Shown here one piece after another: positions 9,500 through 56,462 of a stretch of DNA of 64,000 nt. Position 1 is the first letter of the stretch, and the number at the start of each line of letters is the position of its first letter. The position numbers and the translations under genes were made by a program. Source of the stretch: Ascidiella aspersa (taxonomy: Eukaryota); contig OZ004612.1 of assembly GCA_963924565.1 (NCBI GenBank), positions 7,378,001 through 7,442,000 of the forward strand, given 5' to 3'. The notes under the pieces were generated by a model, which had not been told where the DNA came from, searched no databases, and was given only the letters and a program-made list of their open reading frames with translations.

Positions 9500-9702
9500 G
9501 GCGCTGGTCTAGAATCCTACCACAACGTTGAAATGATTATTAAGCAATGCATAATATGTGGGTTAGGGTGTCGGTTAGTGTTTGGGTGTAGGTAGGTCAA
9601 GTAATATTGTTTAAAACTATTACTGGACTCACCCAAACCCAAACGCTAACCGGCACCCTCACCCAAATAATGTTCGTTGTGGTAGGATTCTAGACGAGCG
9701 CC
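9500..9702. mobile_element. Fold-back MITE with GGCGC termini, 8-bp TSD and internal telomere-like inverted repeats (copy 1)
   Basis: TIR GGCGCTGGTCTAGAATCCTACCACAAC / GTTGTGGTAGGATTCTAGACGAGCGCC. TSD CAACTAAC at 9492-9499 and 9703-9710. Confidence 0.88.
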
Positions 9703-10221
9703 CAACTAACTACAACTATTAAATGCCTAACTACTAAGAAAATTAATGTCAGAGTTGAGGACCTAGCCTAGATTCCTGTTTTTTTTATGAAATCATCCCT
9801 AAGAAATCTTCCCTAAGAAAAACCCCCAAAAAATCCCCCGAAAAATAACCCGAGCGAAGTATGAGCGCAGAGATTTTTATAGATCAATACCTCCCAAAGT
9901 TGTCAAGTTACAGTCATTTTTTTTATCATTTCTGTAATATTAAGGTTGGCTATCACGAATATGTCTTTTTAATAACGGTTAAGTGTTCACTAGGGAGATT
10001 ATTTTGGGACTTGTCAAAAAAGTCAAAATTTTGTAAAAATTTACACGTTCAAGCTATTATATTATTATTGTATGTGTAGAACATATGTCGCGAACTTATA
10101 TTTTCTTGTGGCCAATAAATTAATGGACATTACCCTAGTGTTCTTATATCGAGAATAGACTGAGTTGAAAAGTTGGATTCCTGGACGTATTTAAAACAAT
10201 TTGGGTGTGATCTATCTAGCC

Positions 10222-11291: not shown

Positions 11292-11639
11292 ATCTAGCCT
11301 CACAATGGTTAAATTAACACATCACAAATGTTCATTTAACCAGACAATGAAATTACCGTAGCATCAAAAACTCAACAAATCATATTCTGTAAAAAGGCAA
11401 TTGAACAAAAGTTACAGCAATTTAATATGCGTAGCAAACCTACAACACGTTGAATGACGTTGTTATCTGCAAGCATATTTACAAAATCCGCACAGTGCCA
11501 CTAAAGAACAAAATGGCCTATACTGAACGTATGTGGGTTTATAGGGATATTCTAAACCCTAAAGGTTTGGTCTTTTAAACAATATTTTTGTCATATTAAA
11601 AATACCTATGGGTACACTATACACGGGTCTGTAATGTAG

Positions 11640-11913
11640 CTTGATAATAAATTGCAAAGACAAAAAGGTCGAGTAGATCGACATCATTTTGATTAAGGTA
11701 CAGCGGGGTACCTGTTTAACACCTGAAGGTGCTAAATTATGCTCCTACTTTTCAAACTCAGACTAACAACAATTGCGTCCCATCTCTTATAAGTGATGCT
11801 TGAATTGCTTCTTAGTCACATTAACTGTAAATGATACAAGCTCGTATCGAAACGTCTTAATCAAGATGGTGTCGATCTACTCGACCTTTTTGGCTTTGCA
11901 ATTCATTATCAAG
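11640..11913. mobile_element. Inverted-repeat element, probable Penelope-like retroelement / retrozyme remnant (copy 1)
   Basis: About 58-bp inverted repeats at 11640-11697 and 11856-11913. Contains the hammerhead-like motif. Related to 25037-25181. Confidence 0.65.
11821..11860 (+). ncRNA. Degenerate minimal type I hammerhead ribozyme motif
   Basis: TTAA-CTGTAAA-T-GATAC-AAGCTC-GTATC-GAAAC-GTC-TTAA. Two mismatches to CUGANGA. Confidence 0.55.
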
Positions 11914-13196
11914 AATACCTATAGATGTTAAAAGTGTTAAAACTCGTTATATTGGCATCAGATTAGGTCAAAACTAAGAATTTTCTTCAGATAAATTAGT
12001 TTCTCTAAGATCGCAGTCTTTTGCTAATTTTTGCTAGTTAGTTTACAACAAAACTAATGCACTAGAATTGTGTAAAAGTTGAAATTTGGATGTCCATTAC
12101 CTCTTATTTCGTCCCGATGCCGATAACCGACATTTTGTGCAAGAAAAGAGCACCATCCATTCGTTCCGGTTTAAAGAGACATCATTATTTATTATTATGT
12201 TCAAAAATTTAAAATTAGTCAATTTACAACGTGCGAACGTATTTCAACAAAAGTATTATTTAGCGATTGAAAACTTAGTTCTTTATTGTTAATTTGCAAT
12301 TTAAAAAAATCTTAACACTTGGAACGCAAAACATAGTTGAAATTCTGAAACTGATTTGATCCCGGTCTGGGTGATTTCATGTTTCAAACCACACTGCAGG
12401 TTAGTTCTTTCTAACCTTGCCTTGTTCGTATAAAAATCCTTATTTTTTTACTGATTCGGTTCGTCCAAACTCCAGAAGATCTTAAACAGGGCAATTTCCA
12501 GACAGGAGTGAATTTAATGTTTATATATTTATATATATACATATATTTATCTGCGCTGCGCCATCATGATTGTCTAATAAGTTGTTTATCAGTGTTAGTA
12601 ATTCTTGTGCAAAAACTAGATGTTTTGGCCATATTTGTTTTTAATTTATCTTAATTTTAGTAAGGGCCTACAATTGAACCACCAAGAACATGTCGTTTCA
12701 CTCGACTTATTTTATGCCATTTGTAGGATTGTGCTTTAGGCATATAAACCGACAATTCTGTCTAAAACATTTTCTAAAACGAATTATTGTTTTATATTTT
12801 GATAAATTATCTATAAGCCTTCCTAAATTACAAAAGTATCGCGCTTCTGAACCTAGATTTATTGCACCTTTTTTCTATGACCACAGGCTGACGCGGTGTA
12901 GGATTGAACCCTATCCAAAAAAACATAGAATTTGGGACTGATAGCTTTCACATCTTAAACGTTTTTCCAAAAATATTTTAGTAAATGTAACAGCACCGGG
13001 CAACGCGCATTTTGTTTTATTCTATGAGTCACGTCTACTTTCAAATGTTTTCGCACCTTTTCGCTGAACAGGGGGAGACAGTGCATAATATGTGTATCGT
13101 TTTGCTGTTGAGCATAATCTATACTAAAAATCAGGTCGTGACTTTCTAATACTCGAAGCCAAATAATTACCTTGTTTAACATATTAATCACTGAGT

Positions 13197-14135: not shown

Positions 14136-14655
14136 GACCTAATAAAGTCTTTCGGGTTAAATGATTTGATTTGGCGTCAGTTTTTTAGACAAATGGCTTG
14201 ACTTGTGTTAAGGTGCTTTAATTGAATACATTTTAGCAAAATAAGATTATTTTATCCAATTATAAAGTTTAATAAATTTCCCTCTCTATGTTTCGTTATA
14301 ATGTTTATCTATGCAATGCGTTTAATATTAAAACTTGACTTAACTCAACTTGGACTTAGACTAAGTTTTCTGCGAATGACTTGACTAGTACTCAAATCAT
14401 TCAAAATCCATAGTCGAGCTATATAGCGTAATATTCTTGCAAAAACAATTGGTGATTGTTTGGTTACCTCTAACCATTTTAAAGTCTCTATTAATTTGAA
14501 TATTTATACAACTCATCAGACTTAATAAAGTCTTTCGGTTAAAATGATTTGATTTGGCAGTTTTTTAGACAAATGACTTGAATTATATCAGGGTGCTTAA
14601 TTGAATTCATTTCACTAAAATTGTTTTTTTTAGCCAATTATAAAGTTTACTAAAT
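14136..14655 (+). repeat. About 140-bp diverged direct repeat (14136-14278 and 14519-14655) in GACTTGACT-rich repeat sequence
   Basis: Shared TAATAAAGTCTTTCGG..AAATGATTTGATTTGGC..GTTTTTTAGACAAATG..CCAATTATAAAGTTTA. Confidence 0.8.
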
Positions 14656-24516: not shown

Positions 24517-24946
24517 ACCCCAAGTAAGAACTGCTACAAGCAACGGAAACGCATTCTCGACGAAAGCGAATCGTAAAAAGCAAGTCGGGGACAACAACCA
24601 TCTAAACCAGAATTCGCACCAGCGATACCAAAACGGACATCTCACTCAGCAGCAGTACAACCACCAGCGGCACCAGTACCAAAACCACCAGATCGGCCAT
24701 CAACAGCAACCAGCAGGCAAACACCAGCAGCAACAACAGCAACCCAACCCCAAGCGACAACCTGTCGCGTGTCGCGTGCAGCAGAACGCGTCGACGGGCG
24801 ACAGGATGCGACAACGCCGGGTATTCCCCACTAATTACTGCGCCCTGCTTAAGAAGGCCCCACCACCCATTCCCACCAATCTGATTAAGGGATTAAATGG
24901 GGTTGACCACTCGTCCAGGAAAAAGGACCATCCGGGACTCGGAAAG
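24517..24946 (+). CDS. KIF26: KIF26-like exon, Gln/His-rich N-terminus and pre-motor segment (FPTNYCALLKKAPPPIP...KDHPGLGK)
   Basis: Acceptor ttcctttccag, donor AAG|gttggt phase 0. PGLGK joins directly to VKIMLRI of the next exon. Confidence 0.9.
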
Positions 24947-25036
24947 GTTGGTGATCTTAGTGTATAACTTTCGGGATAACAGGATGCAACATTGCAGATC
25001 AAAGGACCATTAACAATATAAAGTAGAGTAGATTAA

Positions 25037-25181
25037 TAAAAAAATTCAAAGCCGAAAAGGTCGAGATCTGTCTTGATTAAGACGTTTCGATACAAGCTTT
25101 TAACCGAAGATGATACAAGCTCGTATCGAAACGTCTTAATCAAGAAGATGTCGTTTTTAGCTTTGGAATTTATTATCACAT
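25037..25181. mobile_element. Inverted-repeat Penelope-like/retrozyme remnant (copy 2) in KIF26 intron
   Basis: CTTGATTAAGACGTTTCGATAC (25072-25093) is the reverse complement of 25123-25144. Shares sequence with 11640-11913. Flanked by TAGATTAA direct repeats (25029-25036, 25182-25189). Confidence 0.65.
25100..25139 (+). ncRNA. Degenerate minimal type I hammerhead ribozyme motif
   Basis: TTAA-CCGAAGA-T-GATAC-AAGCTC-GTATC-GAAAC-GTC-TTAA. One mismatch (U4 to C) to CUGANGA. Confidence 0.6.
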
Positions 25182-27517
25182 TAGATTAAAATTTTAATAA
25201 TCATCTGAAACATGGTTTGTACATTAAACCTTAAAATTAGCTTTGTGATGTTCTTATTCATGTATTAAACATAATAAGAGTAGGTAAAAACATACAAACA
25301 ACCAACAGGTGACTTATCGGTATAACAATGCTTTCCTGGTGCTAACGTAGGGTACAATTACCGGCGTTTCGTATTGTTAACGTCGTATAGCTTTGCTATA
25401 CTTATAAGAGCAGCAGCTATAGCGAGTCATATAATCTGACTAAGTATTTAATCCGTTGTATCTATTGTAATGGTTAAGTGTGCGCCAATTCACAACCCGT
25501 TATATAACAATGGCCACTCGGACGTTGTTGCCACGCTTTCAGCTGTCTGTTCACAGTAACTCTATGTTTTACGGAGGAAGCTGAACTCTATACTCCACTA
25601 ATAGGATTAAAGGATTAATGATTTCGGAGCTCATTGCTTACGTTCACGCAATCCAAGCATTTGACTCTTGTGTCCAAGGTATATGGCACAATGACACACA
25701 TACAGAAAAACCAAGCTGCTGTTTCTGCCGTCCATATAATTGCTAGTCATGATAAGAGCGCGTGCGTTCCTATTTTAAGATTGAGTGCTTGCCGTAAGGT
25801 GTTGTCATTTTTTTAAGAGCACAACACTTATCTTTGCAACAACATGCGCGATTTTATTTCAAGGTAGACAAAATCCAGCCAAGCGGCGCAAAACCATTTC
25901 AAGCGTTTTTACGACGGCTATCTTAACCTGACGATAACAACATTAAAATCATTTGTTGGCTCATTATCCGCAATAGCAAATGATGCACACACTCTCTAAT
26001 ACATTTATCACCGACTTTACCGCAGTAAGCAATCAATTTGTACCTGGCAGTTAAAGTGTTTTACTGGAGTTTAACTGCTTTACGGGTTTGTTTTACACAC
26101 ACTTGTTTGACCAGTGCTTTCATTACTCTCCAGGTCATCTGGAGACTAATTTGTCAGTTTAATTTTGCGGCTTGACGTTTAACCGATATGGTATCGTTTA
26201 AATAAGGGGCGCTGTATCCTAGTAACCTCATGAGTTTAATCCAGTTTCATGCTCTTTAGGTTTAATAGTTGCACAATTACAAGATCTTAACGAGATGCAC
26301 AACAGATTCATCTTCGTAAATTAAGCAGCGCAAAACTTGTCATACACGAACGTTTATTAGATTAGAGCCATTTATGAAGGCAACTCCTTTGAAAAGCCAT
26401 GCGGTCTAACTTGTTTTGCAAGCCAAAAACGTCTTAGAACCGCATGAGGCCGACGCATGTCGCTGGAAGCGGGCGTAAATGAGATCTTTAGATTTGCCAT
26501 TCGTTAAGTCGCCTGAACCGCAAGTGCACGTCAGTCGTTTGCGCGAACGCACAGAGATACGCAATGTCATCATTCCAGTCTTCGCGGCATCTCGCATTTT
26601 CCTATAGTGCGATGTTGCACTGAATATGTGACGATGGAAATCACCTCGACCCTTGCAAAATAAAGTCGATCTTAATTCCTGATCAGTAACAGCAGAATAC
26701 CCTAGCAAAGCTAGCAATTCAGGTCCGATACTATTAAAAGATCTTAAAAGATATATATTTTCGAAAGGCATCGTCAGTATCTTTGAATAAACCAACGCAA
26801 CAGTCTTCCTGAATTGTGCGATTAGAACTGCCAGTTTTCTCCCACAAGTTTGCTCAACAAATTGGTGCGAAATGGTAACTGGCAGTTCATAAAGTGACAG
26901 TAATGTACTAGTAAAAACTGCAGGCGTGAAAAACGTGCATAAAACGATCTTTTGCGGCGACCACAAGTAAACCGACTGAGATAGATTCCGAATAAATGCT
27001 AGCGCCAATTAGAGCGCCAAATTGGAGCGGTATGTTCGCCTTTCCGCAGCGCTAAGTGCCCCAACGCGCATGTAGTTTACACACACGCGCGTACGCGCAC
27101 ACATACTCACACACACACACACGAAATCTGCGAGGGTTACCGGGGCAGCGGCACCAGCGGATCGCTTATTAGTCGAGCCGGGGCCGAGCGTGCCCGAAAG
27201 ACCGCCAAGGCTCCTTTTGATTCGGCGCCTATTTGCCCCACGCAAATACGGCCAGCGGGCGCCCTTATCCCCCGCAATGCTTTCGCTGTGGCTGTCGCCA
27301 GAGTTGTGCCATGTTTTTGGACCAAATTGCCGACGGCGAGCGCCTCTTCTGAGATTCCGAGACGCCTGTGCGGTTATTAGTTGCGGAGGGGGCGGTTAAA
27401 AGACGCCACATAAACATTTTGCCTGGGTTTCATAAGTCCATTTTAATAACTTCTTGCTATACGTTTTACGTACACCTCGAGCCAAACGGCGTTATACAAC
27501 CTTTCCTTTTAAGACAA

Positions 27518-27883: not shown

Positions 27884-30800
27884 CCTTGAGCCGGTTCGGC
27901 TCGTTCATGCCCCGCCAATCGCGCCTGGCATCTTCTCAGATCGCATTTATCATGTTTGATCAAACCTTTGCGTGCGAAAATACACTTTCCGGCGAGTGGA
28001 GATCGGGCCGCCAACAGCACCGCACGGAAGCCCGGCGAAATCGGGAAGTGGCGGTTAAACAAATGCCGTCGTCGTGTTTGGGTAATTCCGGCAAACGTTG
28101 ACGTGTGAAAGCCGTAAATCATGGTCGGTTGCCGGCGATTCGACCAAATTGGACTTTGTCCGCAAAATTAGGTTGGTCCTAGTAGGGAATATCGGGGTGA
28201 ACGGAGGGTCATTTTGTTATAAATTTTATGCCAAATTTTACCAAAATCCAACACCTATCGTATGCTATTTTATAACTTGATATGGCGGCCATCCTTTTTA
28301 CGTTTATCTTTGATTTTTCACTTTGCCTAATTCCTGCAAGTTATTTGAAAATGTCAGACCCTCAATTGATAGCTTTTTTCTACCGCGTCCAAATAGTTTC
28401 CGCGTGAATATTTAAAATGTTCAATAATGTTGCTTAAAAAATCCTTGGTAAGTTTTATTCACTTTGGCACTTTCTTATAATATTGCTTTGGAAGTTTGCC
28501 AAAGATAATCACAAATATCAAACAAAATCTACTTTTGTCGGCAAATACATTCTCCAGCGTGCATTTATCAATGAAGTAAAAAACCCTTTTCCAAAGTCCG
28601 GTTTAGATTCCAGTTCGGAAGAATATACTTCAACTGGCGGAGTTCACGTCTGCATAAAATGTTATGCAAAAGCGACCAGTCGTCCAGCGCCAGTCAGCAA
28701 ATCCAAACCCCCACAATTTCACCAAATCACTGTTTTCGCGTCGCTTTTGTTATTGGCTTTGGACGCCGCGCGCGGCAGAAACAGGAACGCGTGCGATTAC
28801 TGTTCAGATATCAAACGCCGTATATTTTCCCTTCACTCGCCGTGTGTGCCCGCTTGAAGAAAAGGACACTGTTTAAACACGGTCTCAGCCCGGGCACCCT
28901 TGTCGGTTTTGTGTGCCTCAGAAGTCAAACACGCTGGCCGCGCGCGCTCGCGTACTAATACATTGTCGACGTCACAGGCAATTTGCTGACGTCATAATTG
29001 GAATGCTGAGCCGCATCGCCATGACAATCGGGCGGACGTTATCTGTTTTTTTATTCCCTTGCAAAGGTGACCCTGCTGTCGTTAAGGTTAAAGGCCCGGT
29101 TAACGAGCCGACCGCGCAAACTTTCACCCAATAAAAGTTTTATCGGGCGTGAGGCGGGCACGATGGCGAAATGTTTGTCAGGCAATTATAACGGCGCTTG
29201 GTGGAAGGCCTCTGAGAAGAGTTCGACCTAGGGTGTACGCGTTTTCAAGGCAAAGGGCTTGCAACGATACGTTGACAGCATAACGCCTAACAAAGATAAA
29301 AAATTCCTGATTTGTAAAAAACTTTATGGTTTTAAATGGAGTTACGCCGTATTTCTTACTTGCTCGAGGTTAGAATCTTGTCAAATTTTCCTCCCAAAGT
29401 TTGCTATACTTACGATAGGTTTTGTGATACGACATAGTTTTAAGTTAAAAACGGTGGAATACATGTGCGAAAGAAACATTGACAGTCAACAAAATACTAT
29501 TTTTTATGTACATTAATAGTGAAGCTCAAATGTAAGAAGTCTGGCTTAAAGTTGCCCACAGCAAAAATACAAATAGATTTCGCAAATTATAAGAGGTTAA
29601 TTCCACCGGCAATTCTTTTACATTCCCGGGGGCAACGCCAATGATATTTTGTATTATTTTAACCCCGGGCGTTTTACCATTTCAAGTTGGGGCGACATTG
29701 TATTAAGATGAGACGTGTGTCGACTGTGAAACATTTGTCATTCTTCCAAGCTAGCTCGCGTAGGTATATTTTCAAACTGGCAAAAACGGGTTTATTATAC
29801 CAGCGGTTAAACACCTGTTAAATTAGATAGACTATAGCAAGCCACCTCGCTCACAACAATAGCTTCCTATCGTGTTTCACGCGACACACGATAGATTTCT
29901 ATAGCTTAAAACGAAATCTTACATTAACCCAAGAGACAATGCCGAAGAAAGGGGAAATGGGCTTAGACGCTGTGTGTTGCAACACCGATAGTAATCGTCG
30001 GGTAAGCGGAAATCCAAACTCAAACGCTCGAGTAGTTGCAAGAATTTTTCGTATTCCCGTTTTAAGTGCAAGGGATTGTGTATCAAGCAGATTTCTACGG
30101 GCGTTTAAAATTACAAAGTTCTGCGCTTTAAAAAATCTTGATTAATGCACCTGCGCGCATGCAATTCGAACCGAAACTACGCCAGGAATCCTATAAAATG
30201 GAGTCGATCAAGCCTCTTAACGTTTCCGACCAAAAACAAACCGATACAATTGCTTTCCAAATCCCAGCGCAACAAACCACGGCGCACTGTCCAATGTGTA
30301 CAGGAGACACATGCGTATTAGAAATCGACGTGCGTATAACGCAACCCGTGATTTACGGCGTGACGTCACAGACAGAGGCCGACGCACGTCACGCCAAACC
30401 AGTGGGACGGAACACGAGGGGTGCTGCCGCTAGCCATGAGGCGATTCCGTTGGTTACCAATGCACAGTGTTTAATACGACGCCGCCTGGATTTGTTGTTT
30501 TGTTGTGTTGAGCGCTTTTCATTGCAATACACGAGCGCAATCTGTCGTTGGCTCACGGTCGATTTTAATGATTTCCTAATCTTCCCTTTGGTCTTTCGGG
30601 AGCCGGACCGTCGCGCCGTGGCCCGGAGGCGCGCGCACACGGCGACAAAATTGTAGGTCGCCATCGACTTGCCTCTGAACGGACAAAAGGCCAGGGCAAC
30701 ATATTTTCGAAATTGGCTATTGCGTTTTTTCGGGAATGCGCCTAAATTACAAAACCAGGTCTTGTGCCTGTAAGCCGTTTGGGTTAATGTACATTTTAGG

Positions 30801-39200: not shown

Positions 39201-42200
39201 AAATGTCACTGATTTGGATTACAGACATTCCACCATAAGAGCGATAAAATAAACCCGGGAGAAACGTTTATGACCAAGCTAAACTCTCGTGAAAAATTTC
39301 GGATAAAACATTCCGCCCATATTTGACACGTTGTCTGCTGTCTTATACACGTTTCGGTTGTGCATTACCACATAAAATCATAACAGTCTATTAGTTGCTT
39401 ATCGGTCCATTAAAGTAGATTTATTCGTGAACTGGTTGTAGGGTTTCTAAGGATTTAGAGACAATATGAAATTCTTTATAAAGCTAGAAACTTTTTATGA
39501 ACCTTATTTGAAAACATCACACTATTATCTTTAATTTCTCATGGGCTCGGATTTTATGTCAATTCAAAAAAATTGTTACAAAGCATTGAAAATTTTCCTT
39601 CAGTTATAGTTTAGACCTGACGATGTAGATGTAAGTTAAGGGCTGCTGTATGGACAGCAAATACGCGCCGCGCATTGTGCATAAGCAGTCGGCATCAATG
39701 TGGGCTTCCATATCGATCGGTCGGACGAAGTCCCTACTTACTGCAGCAAGACGCAAGCAAAAGACAGCGACGGCGACATATGGCTTATTCGCGCCAGGCG
39801 CTTAAGTGAAATTAGCTGCTGACCAGAAGTAAGCTAGCGACGGGCGAGCGGCAGCCGACTTGATTAAGATCGTCGGCACCAGCTATCCCCGATTTCCCCT
39901 TGTCTCTGTCGCCGTCTCGCCTTTTCTCTCTTTCTTTAGCCTTGCCTTGTCTCGGCCAGTAATCGAATATATGCGAAACCCGAGCGTTATCTGGCGACGA
40001 CCCTTTTAGCGCGTTATAGCATCGCTGCTACGAGAGATAATGCAGTTTTATTTTATTTTTCGTCTTTCTCGAAAACGCGCGGCGCCGCCCTAAAAGCGCT
40101 GATGGCGTTTTTAAACGAGCGAATTTATCAGCCGGCAAAGATGTTTTCCTCCCCCCGAATTCTGACAGCGGCAACATTTTCACACGAAAAAAAGGAACGA
40201 TTTTAGCAAACGATCACCCAAGATGTAGCAGCACACGCTATAAGAAACACTTGTCCATATAACAGCGCTTTTTAACCGATGGACTCTTTCAGGTGGGCGC
40301 GCACTTTCGACTGAGATATTTTAATTTTGGTTCGGAAATCTCAAGATGGGAAAATGAGTTCCTGAATACAGAATAATTTTTGGTGTGAAAATTGCACCGA
40401 TTTCGGATAAGGATTGAGTGCATTTGCTCTTTTTGTCAATTACTTTACCGCAACACCATGTTGTGAACCCTAAAATGAATTCTTAGTAAAAGGTGCCGCT
40501 GTCATGACGTGGAAAATATAGGCTAAAATGCAAAAAAAAGGTTTGGAAGCGCTGTCCTATGAGGTTGATAGAAAAACAGAAAACGAGAATTACGAAAGCG
40601 AGGGAAGACGTTGAACGGGAAACTCCCTGTACTTTGGACCACCGAGTTATCGGTCAACTAAATCCTCATGCTGGTCGCGCTTAGGCCTTTTAGCACGCCT
40701 TAAAAAATTGGCCTATATTTATCGCGGAAATCCGACTCGGCCGCTGTGCGACTTGCATTAAGTCGAATAATAAGACAAGTCCGAGATGCGAGCTCTAATC
40801 CCGCACTTTGCCTGGCCTTAACTCGATTCCCGCGCGAGTTTCTTTTCTCAATGGGAATTAAAGGCGTCCGCGTGCGGTTTAAGGTGTATTTTAATCGCGC
40901 TACTGAGAAGCGACCTAAACATTCGAGCGAAGTCGGCTTAATTAGCTTCCGATGATGGCAAAACAAGCGCGGTGGCCATAACCAACGACAACATCGACAA
41001 AAAGCACATCTGCTCAATCTGGCTCCTCTCATTGGGGCACGGGCTTGAACCAGGTCGCCTCTGACGTTGGGAGGCCGCATTTTTGTGTGTATCGTGTAAT
41101 TGGCGTGTAACGAGAGGTTCAAGGCACTCCGTCATGCCTTGGTCCGTAGCAATTAGGCCTGACCTAAGGGCCAGTGTTCGGACCCCGGGCTCGAAATATC
41201 CCTTGACGCCGAATTTCACGCGCGCGCTTTTTCACACCGCCGCGTATGGCGCAGGGTGTCTCGCCAGCCGACTTGGGATTCCCGAAACGAGGCCAGGTCC
41301 TAGATCGCCGCTTTTCACGCGTTCGACGGGCGACAAGTTGACGCGGACCGCCCGCGCGCCTTGGTTCAGTGCGGTTTTCGCGGCGTGGAATTACAACAAA
41401 ATCAGAACCCCTGACACACAGGTTTAACGGCCCACCAGCACCTTTACTACAACATGTTTGTATTATGGCGAGTGCCACACGCAGAGACGGTTCGGAGAAT
41501 TTATACCTCTTCGCCAAACTATATTTGGGATGTATGAAGTTGTCAGATCCGGCTGATACCTGATACTATAGTGGTAATATCGCTACTCGTTCGATACTAG
41601 TATTGGTGCCGATCTGATTTCAAATTGACAAGTATATTCAAACTATGGTTTGCAAACCAACGCAGCAATTTCTATCTTGAAAGGTTACTTTCTTATTGAA
41701 TGGTGTATTAATTAATAAAAGTTAACCAAGATTTTTAACACAAATGCAACTTTTTGCTGTTTAAACTGGATTTCATTTTATCGATTTTGTTATTTGCCCA
41801 TAGTAATCAGAATTCGTTATAACAGATTCTGCGTAAATCCGAATGGTGAACAACAAACGATTCTGGTTGCACATCAATGATAAAGATTAAACTGCGTACA
41901 GGACCTAGTGAACCGAAAATAAATTTGTTTATATGTCACATGATAAATATATTTCGCTCCTAAAAGTTCATAGTTACGATGTAATTTACGGACGCCCGTA
42001 CTTTATGCTCAAAATATCGGGTATCGGAATACGATACCAAATATCGTGCATCCCCAGCCTGAACCACCCGCTGGCGTTCGAAGCGAGCCCTGGAAATAAA
42101 TAGACGCGACTGTAAATTAGAGAATATACAGACAAGAGCCGACGAAATCCCCGGCGAACGTCGCATTGCACCGAGCAAACAGACATGACCAAATATAACT

Positions 42201-46532: not shown

Positions 46533-46763
46533 GTGAAGATCATGCTCCGCATCTCGGACTCGGATGCGATGAGAGGATCCGCTCCCTCCTCCCCTGCATC
46601 ACCAGGAGTGGGAGTAGGAGCAGAGGAGTTCCTCCGGGTGGAGAGCAACCGAAAGCACGTGAGCGTCTTCACCCCTCGAGACCCCCGCGAGCCCCACAAG
46701 GAGATCATAGCCGCTCCTAAAGTCTACGCATTCGACTCGATTTACACCCCTCGCTCGACCCAG
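46533..46763 (+). CDS. KIF26: KIF26-like motor exon (VKIMLRI...PKVYAFDSIYTPRSTQ)
   Basis: Acceptor tttttcatccag, donor CAG|gtaaga, 231 nt, phase 0 to 0. Confidence 0.95.
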
Positions 46764-54079: not shown

Positions 54080-54313
54080 GTAAGCAAATCGGTGGTTGGA
54101 AGTTTTATTACAATTATCCCCAGGATTTAAACGTCAATTATACATATTTGTCTTCGTCAATCACTTTCAAAAATGCTCTCGGCAAACTGTTACTTGTTTG
54201 TTTTTGTTGAAGGTTAGAAATGGTCAAAGACAATTGGCACCAAATGGGATTTGAACTCAAAAATGTCTCAAATAAAATGTTTTTTGAACACAGCCAAGTG
54301 AGTTTCAATAATG

Positions 54314-54500
54314 GGCGCTGGTCTAGAATCCTACCACAACACACATCATTTCGGTTTTGGTTAGAGTGGGTCAGGTATTATTATTAAATAATGAATATTA
54401 TAATAATACTTGACCCACCCACACCCAAACGCTAACTCGTACCCTAACACAATTATTGTGCGTTGTTTTAACAATTGTGGCAGCATTCTAGACCAGCGCC
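54314..54500. mobile_element. Fold-back MITE, same family as 9500-9702 (copy 2, apparently opposite orientation)
   Basis: TIR GGCGCTGGTCTAGAATCCTACCACAAC / TTGTGGCAGCATTCTAGACCAGCGCC. TSD CAATAATG / CATTAATG (7 of 8). Confidence 0.88.
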
Positions 54501-56462
54501 CATTAATGGTATTTACTTCGAAAAACACACTTGGATTCATTCATCCTTCAAATTTATGCCAAATATCCCTGATGATCATTTTTGTTCGGCGTAAGAATCG
54601 TTTAAATTTTAAAATAAAAACAAATGTAACGCAATTTCTCAAAAATGTGTAATCCGCTACCGCCGCCTTTTGCTGAAATCCAATTTACATTTATGCATAT
54701 TGTTGGGCCTAAACAACGCCCTCAAGGTGCAAAAACAAAATGCTGCAGCCAATTAACCCGGCTGCATCAGTAACGAACGGATTATTGTAGCACCGAAAAG
54801 CCAATCGGATTAAGCGATCTGAAAAGACAGGCGGTAGCCTTGCGCCGTTTGAGCCCTTATAAATGATTCAGAATGTTTAGTTTGGAAATCTTCCCGGTTG
54901 ATTAGGGGACCTGTAAGCTGCTTCGCATTAGGCAAGGCACAAATTAACCTTCTTTGTCCCAAGTAAATAAGTATAGAGAGTAAACTAAATTGGGCGCTAA
55001 TTGTAAAGGAAATCATGGTCACCGCTGTGGTAAACTTTGATAATGGATTTGCTTTTGATTGTAATTCCGCGTTGGTTTTGAGTCGTTTGTAAACATTCTA
55101 AAATTCTCCGGTTCTTGATTCTTCGAAATAATTTCCACAAGGGTTCTAAGCCGTTGTTTATTTTGCATTCTTTAATTCCCCGCTCTTAAGATGTATGTAT
55201 AGGCTACATCGTTTATTGGTTCAGTAGAAGGCATACCATTGAACACTCCTGGATTTGCCATTCTTAAGAAGTATAAATAGTCTAATAGGCATCTTGTATT
55301 TGTGTACAAAATACATGTCAGCTACCAGCAACAAATAAAATCACTTTAAAGAAGTTAAACAAAAAACGAATCAGAACTAAAAAACAATTACATTTCAGAT
55401 TGCCAGGATCAATTTTCAACGTTTCGTCAACGTAAATACTCAATTAATAGTCGGACATTTTTGCGCCTAAGCCATGTGATTACACGCCCTTTCGAATTCC
55501 AAAGCAGCGTAATCGTTTCAAGCCGGTCGCACAGTTGCTTGTTTTTATAGCGATCTTATCACGGTACGCGACATAGCCATTTCAAAGCTTTCCGACCCCG
55601 ACTTTTTGCCGTGCCTTGTTGCTACTTTCAAATCCTAATCCCGGTTACAAGGCAGCATCAAAGCGGTCTCTTTCCGATCTACATTCTCGTAACACGTTGC
55701 CACCAATTTTGCAATTTACACAGCTATTTTACACATAGTTTTGCGGGTGAAATAAAGTTCGGCCGGGTTGGCGAAAGGGTGACTTTCAAGTAGATCCGAC
55801 CCGTTATTTCAAAACGTTTTGAGCGAATGAACCGGTTTATTTGATGTTCTGAAATGTAGAGCTGCTTTGACAAATTCGCACTGTTCGACTTAATAAATCG
55901 GTTTAAAAAATACTATACAATACTTGTTTGGAGAGCTTAGGGTTTTTAATCTCTTTCTCATCAGTCGTCAAAGAGAAATCTAGTTTAAAATTAAATGACT
56001 CTTGCCTAAAGTGTTGTTTTTTTTATTCCGCACATAATTAGGCAAATATGACCTTTTGTATCTGTTCGGACAGTAGTCTCGATTTTGAAATCGACAAAGT
56101 ACACTCCTTAGACACAAGTCAAGTATTTTCAAAGGCAGAGTTGTTTTGTCAACTCTATACAATGCGAAAATAAACGATTCTTTAAAGCATTCATGATTGT
56201 ATTCGTTTTTGGTAATAAATATGCCCAAATGCAATTAGATTACTTGACCTGTGTGGGTTAAGTCAATAAAAATATTAAGTCAAATACAAAAATAAAATAA
56301 AAAATACTTTAACAAAACGATGGTTTTAAAATATTAATAACAATATCGTATTCCCAGCGGTCATATTACTTTTCCAATCGTTCGCTGAAGCAAACCCTTA
56401 AAAAAAATTACCCGGAAAACGATATAAACCTATATAACAAACAACTCTTTTTCTCCGCAAAG

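Follow-up and report, generated by a model that had tools for sequence, protein, structure and literature searches.

A head-to-head insertion of a Penelope-like family in Ascidiella aspersa whose altered hammerhead core probably reflects neutral decay

Minimal hammerhead ribozymes (min-HHR) are described in metazoan Penelope-like elements (PLEs), and the statements made here about this and the other published systems refer to the available parts of each source. Single minimal hammerheads showed no cleavage and their dimers cleaved weakly (Cervera and De la Pena 2014, PMC4209133). The hammerhead of the Anolis element was cleaved only with the element's protein, while core mutants were still inserted in vitro; this protein cuts and extends both strands in vitro, with two internal start sites for reverse transcription (Frangieh et al. 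2024, PMC11167929). Elements of this kind typically leave truncated, inverted copies with a tail at one end and duplications of 8–10 bp (PMC8557442, PMC3846280), and the inversions have been explained by self-priming on an antisense template (PMC3846280).

We analyzed an insertion at 25029..25189 of a 64,000-nucleotide stretch of A. aspersa DNA, the whole of which is called the window. It is very probably a 160-bp head-to-head pair of truncated Penelope-like end-pieces, of which the genome holds at least several hundred; its core change is likely neutral, and its hammerhead motif is predicted to be inactive.

The insertion and its surroundings

The features of the locus, and the other copy to which it is compared, are as follows (family positions are numbered from 0 at 25111, the U after the core).

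11601..11922: copy 1, a head-to-head insertion in its own right, from the same Penelope-like family
24518..24946, + strand: putative kinesin exon, its reading ending in HPGLGK, with a predicted GT donor at 24947
25029..25036, + strand: left copy of TAGATTAA, a probable target-site duplication
25037..25099, − strand: inverted 5'-truncated arm, possibly reaching about 25023, with the CUGANGA half absent
25100..25103, + strand: 5' strand of helix I (UUAA), the 5' end of the sense arm, at family position −11
25104..25110, + strand: hammerhead core CCGAAGA (CUGAAGA in the family), with U4 changed to C at 25105
25111..25127, + strand: unpaired U, helix II (GAUAC/GUAUC, 5 bp), and 6-nt loop II
25128..25139, + strand: GAAAC-GUC, the loop-less palindromic helix III and the 3' strand of helix I, in the layout given in the available part of PMC4209133
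25140..25178, + strand: 3' part of the pseudo-LTR with a 12-nt deletion, stopping at the short end point of the family (+79)
25182..25189, + strand: right copy of TAGATTAA

The inverted arm begins where loop II begins and continues across the 3' strand of stem II and GAAAC-GUC into a decayed tail, which agrees with the preliminary description of a head-to-head inversion breaking at the stem II loop. The junction lies at 25099/25100, at the edge of loop II, and is uncertain up to 25102. The arms 25071-25102 and 25114-25145 are 94% complementary and form a 32-bp stem. The reading of the motif as a minimal type I hammerhead of a retroelement was also upheld: GAAA, the NUH cut triplet, and a palindromic 15.2-16.2 without loop 3 are present at 25128-25135, and helix II with G10.1-C11.1 and an unpaired base after A9 is present in 25111..25127. 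The predicted cut falls after 25135, between +24 and +25. The insertion itself has CCGAAGA in place of the CUGANGA found in its family, and Rfam gave no hammerhead match at gathering score within the 64-kb window.

Copy 1, 13.3 kb away, is the only other core-bearing copy in the window. Its inverted arm (11610-11697) carries a long tail, its sense arm extends to 11913, and a clean 9-bp duplication stands at 11601 and 11914. The two cores previously reported, CCGAAGA (25104-25110) and CTGTAAA in copy 1 (11825-11831), were read directly in the sequence, and they do deviate at different sites, namely position 4 (C25105) here and positions 6 and 8 in copy 1. The 33 identical nucleotides said to follow the core lie within an identity of 35 (25111-25145).

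The insertion is about 80% identical to L160, a longer copy of the family (BLAST, deletions counted). It has two short tails, a minority pattern seen in 4 of 48 inverted copies, and so part of its shape may be due to later deletion. Two contig sets under the same species label both contain the insertion, and one set differs at two tail positions. Other repeats were observed in the window. A second small inverted-repeat family has two copies, at 9500-9704 and 54296-54518, whose centres differ in orientation and which may represent another Penelope-type stub family; a direct duplication of about 380 bp occupies 14136-14655; and TTAATCAAG also matches 30137-30145 and 39859-39867 (− strand), with 1.2 matches expected by chance.

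The preliminary description placed the motif in sense within the pre-mRNA of KIF26, about 150 nt past a donor. The position agrees with the sequence: the downstream + strand exons match Pfam Kinesin (two of three above the cut-off) and a GT donor is predicted at 24947, 157 nt before the core. The name KIF26 was based on motifs and is presumed here; comparison with the atlas and PDB names only "kinesin". The reading HPGLGK could continue without a break of phase into VKIMLRI, which follows an acceptor at 46533, one of the 5 candidates listed. The resulting predicted phase-0 intron (24947-46532, 21.6 kb) splits GLGK/VKIMLRI at the start of the kinesin motor. The exon 24518..24946 is rich in Gln, His, and Asn, and no reads fell on it in one RNA run, of which about 6 in 100 were sampled.

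The family, its parent element and the ancestral core

The genome (309 Mb, 75 contigs) was searched for copies of the family, and 1236 first-look candidates were obtained. A 25-nt stretch of stem II/III had 397 exact matches, and a 27-nt stretch of the tail had 400. The stem II/III stretch has CUGANGA in front of it in 240 of the 397 copies (60%). Among exact 17-nt matches, CTGAAGA was found 545 times, CTAAAGA 59 times, and CCGAAGA 9 times; the flanks of these nine are varied save for one similar pair, and they look mostly independent. RNA reads at 25105, which come from other copies, have U in 197 of 203 cases. The ancestral core of the family is CUGAAGA, as the preliminary description had reconstructed from the two window copies. 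Its statement that the copies complement each other holds as evidence for this ancestor; nothing points to functional complementation.

G5 (25106 in the window) was changed in 13 of 62 and 26 of 134 arms (about 19–21%), roughly twice as often as the other G positions, an excess that could reflect mild selection or a hot spot. A CUAAAGA subfamily was considered and set aside; despite the 59 exact matches, no linked marker reached a p below 0.03 in 135 arms.

Longer copies came to light when the upstream part of copy 1 was used as a query, and in these the motif is linked to coding DNA for a reverse transcriptase (RT) and a GIY-YIG-type endonuclease. The order in L054 and L160 is RYVDD, VVY-CSC-GASYIG, stop, 3' UTR, hammerhead, and tail, with the frame broken. 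DKG and YVDD motifs are present in the longer copies, RVT_1 was above the Pfam cut-off in two of the four pieces scanned (loci L161 and L166), and two His follow VVY-CSC-YIG in L160, as in GIY-YIG with CCHH. A database protein, P0001, which is 51% identical to the endonuclease end, has both RVT_1 and GIY-YIG (PF01541) above the cut-off. The endonuclease piece of L160 alone had no Pfam GIY-YIG match, the L054 fragments had no Pfam match, and the RT piece had none in PDB by sequence. No intact full-length master copy was present among the 15 RT loci examined.

The linker motif CX2-5CxxC is not visible in L160 or L169. Absence of the linker finger marks the Penelope/Poseidon clade in the available part of PMC8557442, and therefore the parent, an endonuclease-bearing (EN+) PLE judging from its motifs, probably belongs to this clade. 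The AUG at the base of stem II (25110-25139 in the window) opens a reading of 9 codons before a stop, and a second AUG stands at +34; an ORF start sought beyond the tail yielded two matches with no common continuation. One long copy with an inverted tail (L166:700-2830) is inserted in the coding sequence of another retroelement, which we take to be integrase-like.

Core changes and predicted folding

The preliminary description tied the core change to the sense intronic position of the motif. A stronger form of this idea is that selection shaped the copy: left intact in sense, the hammerhead would cleave the kinesin pre-mRNA, and only an inactivated copy could have become fixed in the intron. 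The motif is indeed in sense to the kinesin exons and shortly past the predicted donor, the core is changed in both window copies, G5 shows its twofold excess, and both contig sets hold the insertion. Moreover, tandem retrozymes are reported to be excluded from introns and exons (preprint 10.64898/2026.07.22.740005, available part), from which it follows that selection on genic hammerheads can exist. We nevertheless consider this explanation quite unlikely. The core is altered in about 40% of all copies, the share expected under neutral decay, and two altered copies out of two are thus unremarkable (a chance of about 0.16). In addition, cleavage by a single min-HHR requires a dimer or help from the element's protein, according to the available parts of PMC4209133 and PMC11167929, and stem II is sequestered by the inverted arm in the predicted fold.

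The frequency of changes across the family bears on the same point. We used 93 arms picked on the tail alone, representing 90 loci from the first 100 of 400 matches on contigs C1-C2, a few of them near-duplicates. The 12 core positions differed from the majority in 60 of 860 cells (7.0%), compared with 301 of 3617 (8.3%) at other positions, or 253 of 3453 (7.3%) when two polymorphic sites were left out (Fisher p 0.21 and 0.77, respectively). At the rate seen for the six CUGAnGA positions, 59% of cores would be expected to be intact, close to the proportion seen in the 397 copies, although the two samples were chosen differently. Core changes in the family are at the neutral level, the core being no more mutated than its neighbouring positions. 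The proposed tie to intronic position is therefore unsupported, and U4 to C in this insertion is likely ordinary decay.

The 176-nt stretch folds at −61.9 kcal/mol (z = −9.5 against shuffles). In this insertion, stem II has a predicted pair probability of 0.0 with the inverted arm and 0.78 without it, and forcing the hammerhead helices would cost a predicted 32 kcal/mol. Helix II reaches 0.76–0.98 in family arms folded alone. The helix I strands are complementary (4 bp), with a predicted pairing of 0.0 in five folds, including that of an intact solo copy. From these models, the hammerhead of the insertion is predicted to be inactive in place, buried by its inverted arm.

Such a stable hairpin could in principle have acquired a host function through co-option, perhaps giving rise to small RNAs or modulating splicing near the donor, and the long complementary stem close to the predicted donor would be in keeping with this. 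We regard co-option as highly unlikely. The copy is decayed, as its identity to L160 indicates, one contig set differs in the tail, almost no RNA reads lay on the inverted arm in one run, and the Rfam miRNA matches were far below gathering score; the 19 matches at E<=10 are all chance hairpins. No host-gene role is proposed for the insertion, and the reading as a decayed pair of Penelope-like end-pieces is retained.

Copy ends, their proposed origin and known systems

Inversion was common in the family. Among 85 loci (90 from the first 100 of 397 matches, minus 2 repeated and 3 in duplicated segments), 48 had an adjacent inverted arm and 37 had none. The breakpoints were scattered from −153 to +77, several of them within stem II, and so the break in loop II is one common outcome and nothing special. 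The ends of family copies cluster near +80 to +88 and +109 to +111, and 42 of the 48 inverted copies have exactly one long-ended arm (p 5e-8 against independence). Duplications of at least 8 bp were found at 27 of the 85 loci, compared with 1 of 85 control windows, and their lengths range from 6 to 14 bp. In many cases the short end and the target duplication share 2–5 bases.

The repeats reported to flank the insertion were recovered, with TAGATTAA standing at 25029 and 25182. Relative to the BLAST ends, these 8-mers are displaced inward or outward by 9 and 3 nt. The left one falls inside a stretch that matches the tail of the element itself at 20 of 28 bases, with its reverse complement matching at 6 of 8. 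We are inclined to take the pair as a true target-site duplication, typical in length though ambiguous in its left copy.

A palindromic MITE-like DNA transposon that moves whole and duplicates 8 bp of its target, its resemblance to a hammerhead being incidental, would account for the short foldback shape and the exact flanking repeat but is scarcely credible, because the centre varies by copy, 37 of the 85 loci have no inverted arm, duplication lengths are not constant, long copies run into RT and endonuclease coding DNA, and the fixed unit, terminal inverted repeats, and fixed duplication length of MITEs are replaced here by varying junctions, ends, and lengths.

On the reading of the insertion as paired Penelope-like end-pieces, its origin may be pictured as follows. 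The element's endonuclease would have nicked both strands a few bases apart, and the 3' end of each nick may have primed reverse transcription at one of two internal start sites near the tail. The two short cDNAs would then have been joined at their truncated ends, leaving the tails outward and a short target duplication. Later decay would include the loss of 12 nt from the right arm and of smaller pieces from the left, together with substitutions such as U4 to C. We infer that priming from both nicked strands is to be favoured over the antisense self-priming of PMC3846280 (available part).

The 5' ends of the copies showed a further pattern. Among the 93 tail-chosen arms, 25 end at −15 to −12, against 2.0 expected, and 14 of them exactly at −14; about 3 near-duplicates are included, and alignment ends are good to about 2 nt. 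At the cut site (+24 to +27) the same arms showed no excess of 5' ends (5 against 3.7 expected, p 0.31). In contigs from a public run, possibly the window's own source, the joint was at −14 in 4 of 15 cases among the joints listed, and the depth climbs steeply there. Position −14 is the A of an initiator-like TCACATT, 30 nt after a conserved TATAAG.

L160:2618-2648, and near 11788-11818 in copy 1: stretch from TATAAG to −14 (−44 to −14)

This pile-up suggests that short copies are run-off products of uncleaved RNA starting at the front edge of the ribozyme. Put more fully, the element's RNA would start at −14, the first base of helix I, and most short copies would be run-off cDNAs primed internally about 95–125 nt downstream on uncleaved RNA, while the rule of one long tail in 42 of 48 copies would arise if a dimer primed each of the two strands at a site of its own. 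We judge the fuller account evenly balanced between right and wrong. It was not found described in the accessible literature searched.

An extra G before −14, as expected of a copied cap, gave a weak signal (10 of 24, p 0.046, the background still including C, impossible there) and carries no evidential weight. Two other causes of the pile-up were considered and rejected. A splice acceptor at −17 does not fit a peak at −14 instead of −16, and the upstream flanks have no common leader. The GUC before −14 as a second cut site allows no helix I or III on inspection. RNA reads from the pLTR in one run showed no pile-up of starts and ran about equally in both directions, and 95% of them run into unlike sequence; they look like read-through of scattered copies and have no bearing on the start site.

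By itself, the insertion is of little import, being a decayed transposon stub and ordinary mobile DNA. The family, in contrast, offers naturally occurring data on Penelope transposition, a process in which the mechanism behind inversions and tails is called undefined in the available literature. Its hundreds of copies provide end-point statistics comparable with the in vitro Poseidon system, and the ends of the copies say that inserted copies mostly come from RNA uncut by the ribozyme. If the run-off account is true, genomic stubs would reveal where the RNA of a Penelope element starts in vivo and where both of its priming sites lie.

This particular Penelope-like sequence family was not found described in the literature searched, while the class itself is known, and the features of the insertion match published Penelope biology. 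The min-HHR of metazoan PLEs (PMC4209133, available part) share with the family the CUGANGA/GAAA core, the unpaired base before G10.1-C11.1, the complementary strands of a short helix I, and the palindromic loop-less helix III, and they likewise occur as thousands of dispersed single motifs per genome, with opposite-strand pairs 100–700 bp apart. Helix II has 5 bp here, compared with 7–8 bp in Schistosoma and 6 bp in D. virilis, and U4 to C sets this insertion apart. The non-LTR retrozymes of the accessible preprint text (10.64898/2026.07.22.740005) are also non-coding and PLE-related, with a type I hammerhead, but they form head-to-tail tandem arrays, whereas this is a single, dispersed, inverted stub; assignment to that group was therefore rejected. 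Poseidon PAc of Anolis carolinensis (PMC11167929, in the part available) has the same succession of RT and C-terminal GIY-YIG with a hammerhead in the pLTR, the same two preferred 3' end points about 25–30 nt apart, and inserted copies that likewise appear to derive from uncleaved RNA; its ORF starts at the AUG of the stem II base, which in our family opens only the short reading noted above. Finally, the Penelope of Adineta vaga (PMC3846280) and the PLE layout of Craig et al. (2021, PMC8557442), as far as these sources were available, show the same head-to-head inverted truncated pLTR, the same tail at one end with duplications of 8–10 bp, and the same TATA and initiator-like words (TCACT, ACATT) in the pLTR, while most copies here differ from those elements in measuring about 100–250 bp and containing no coding DNA.
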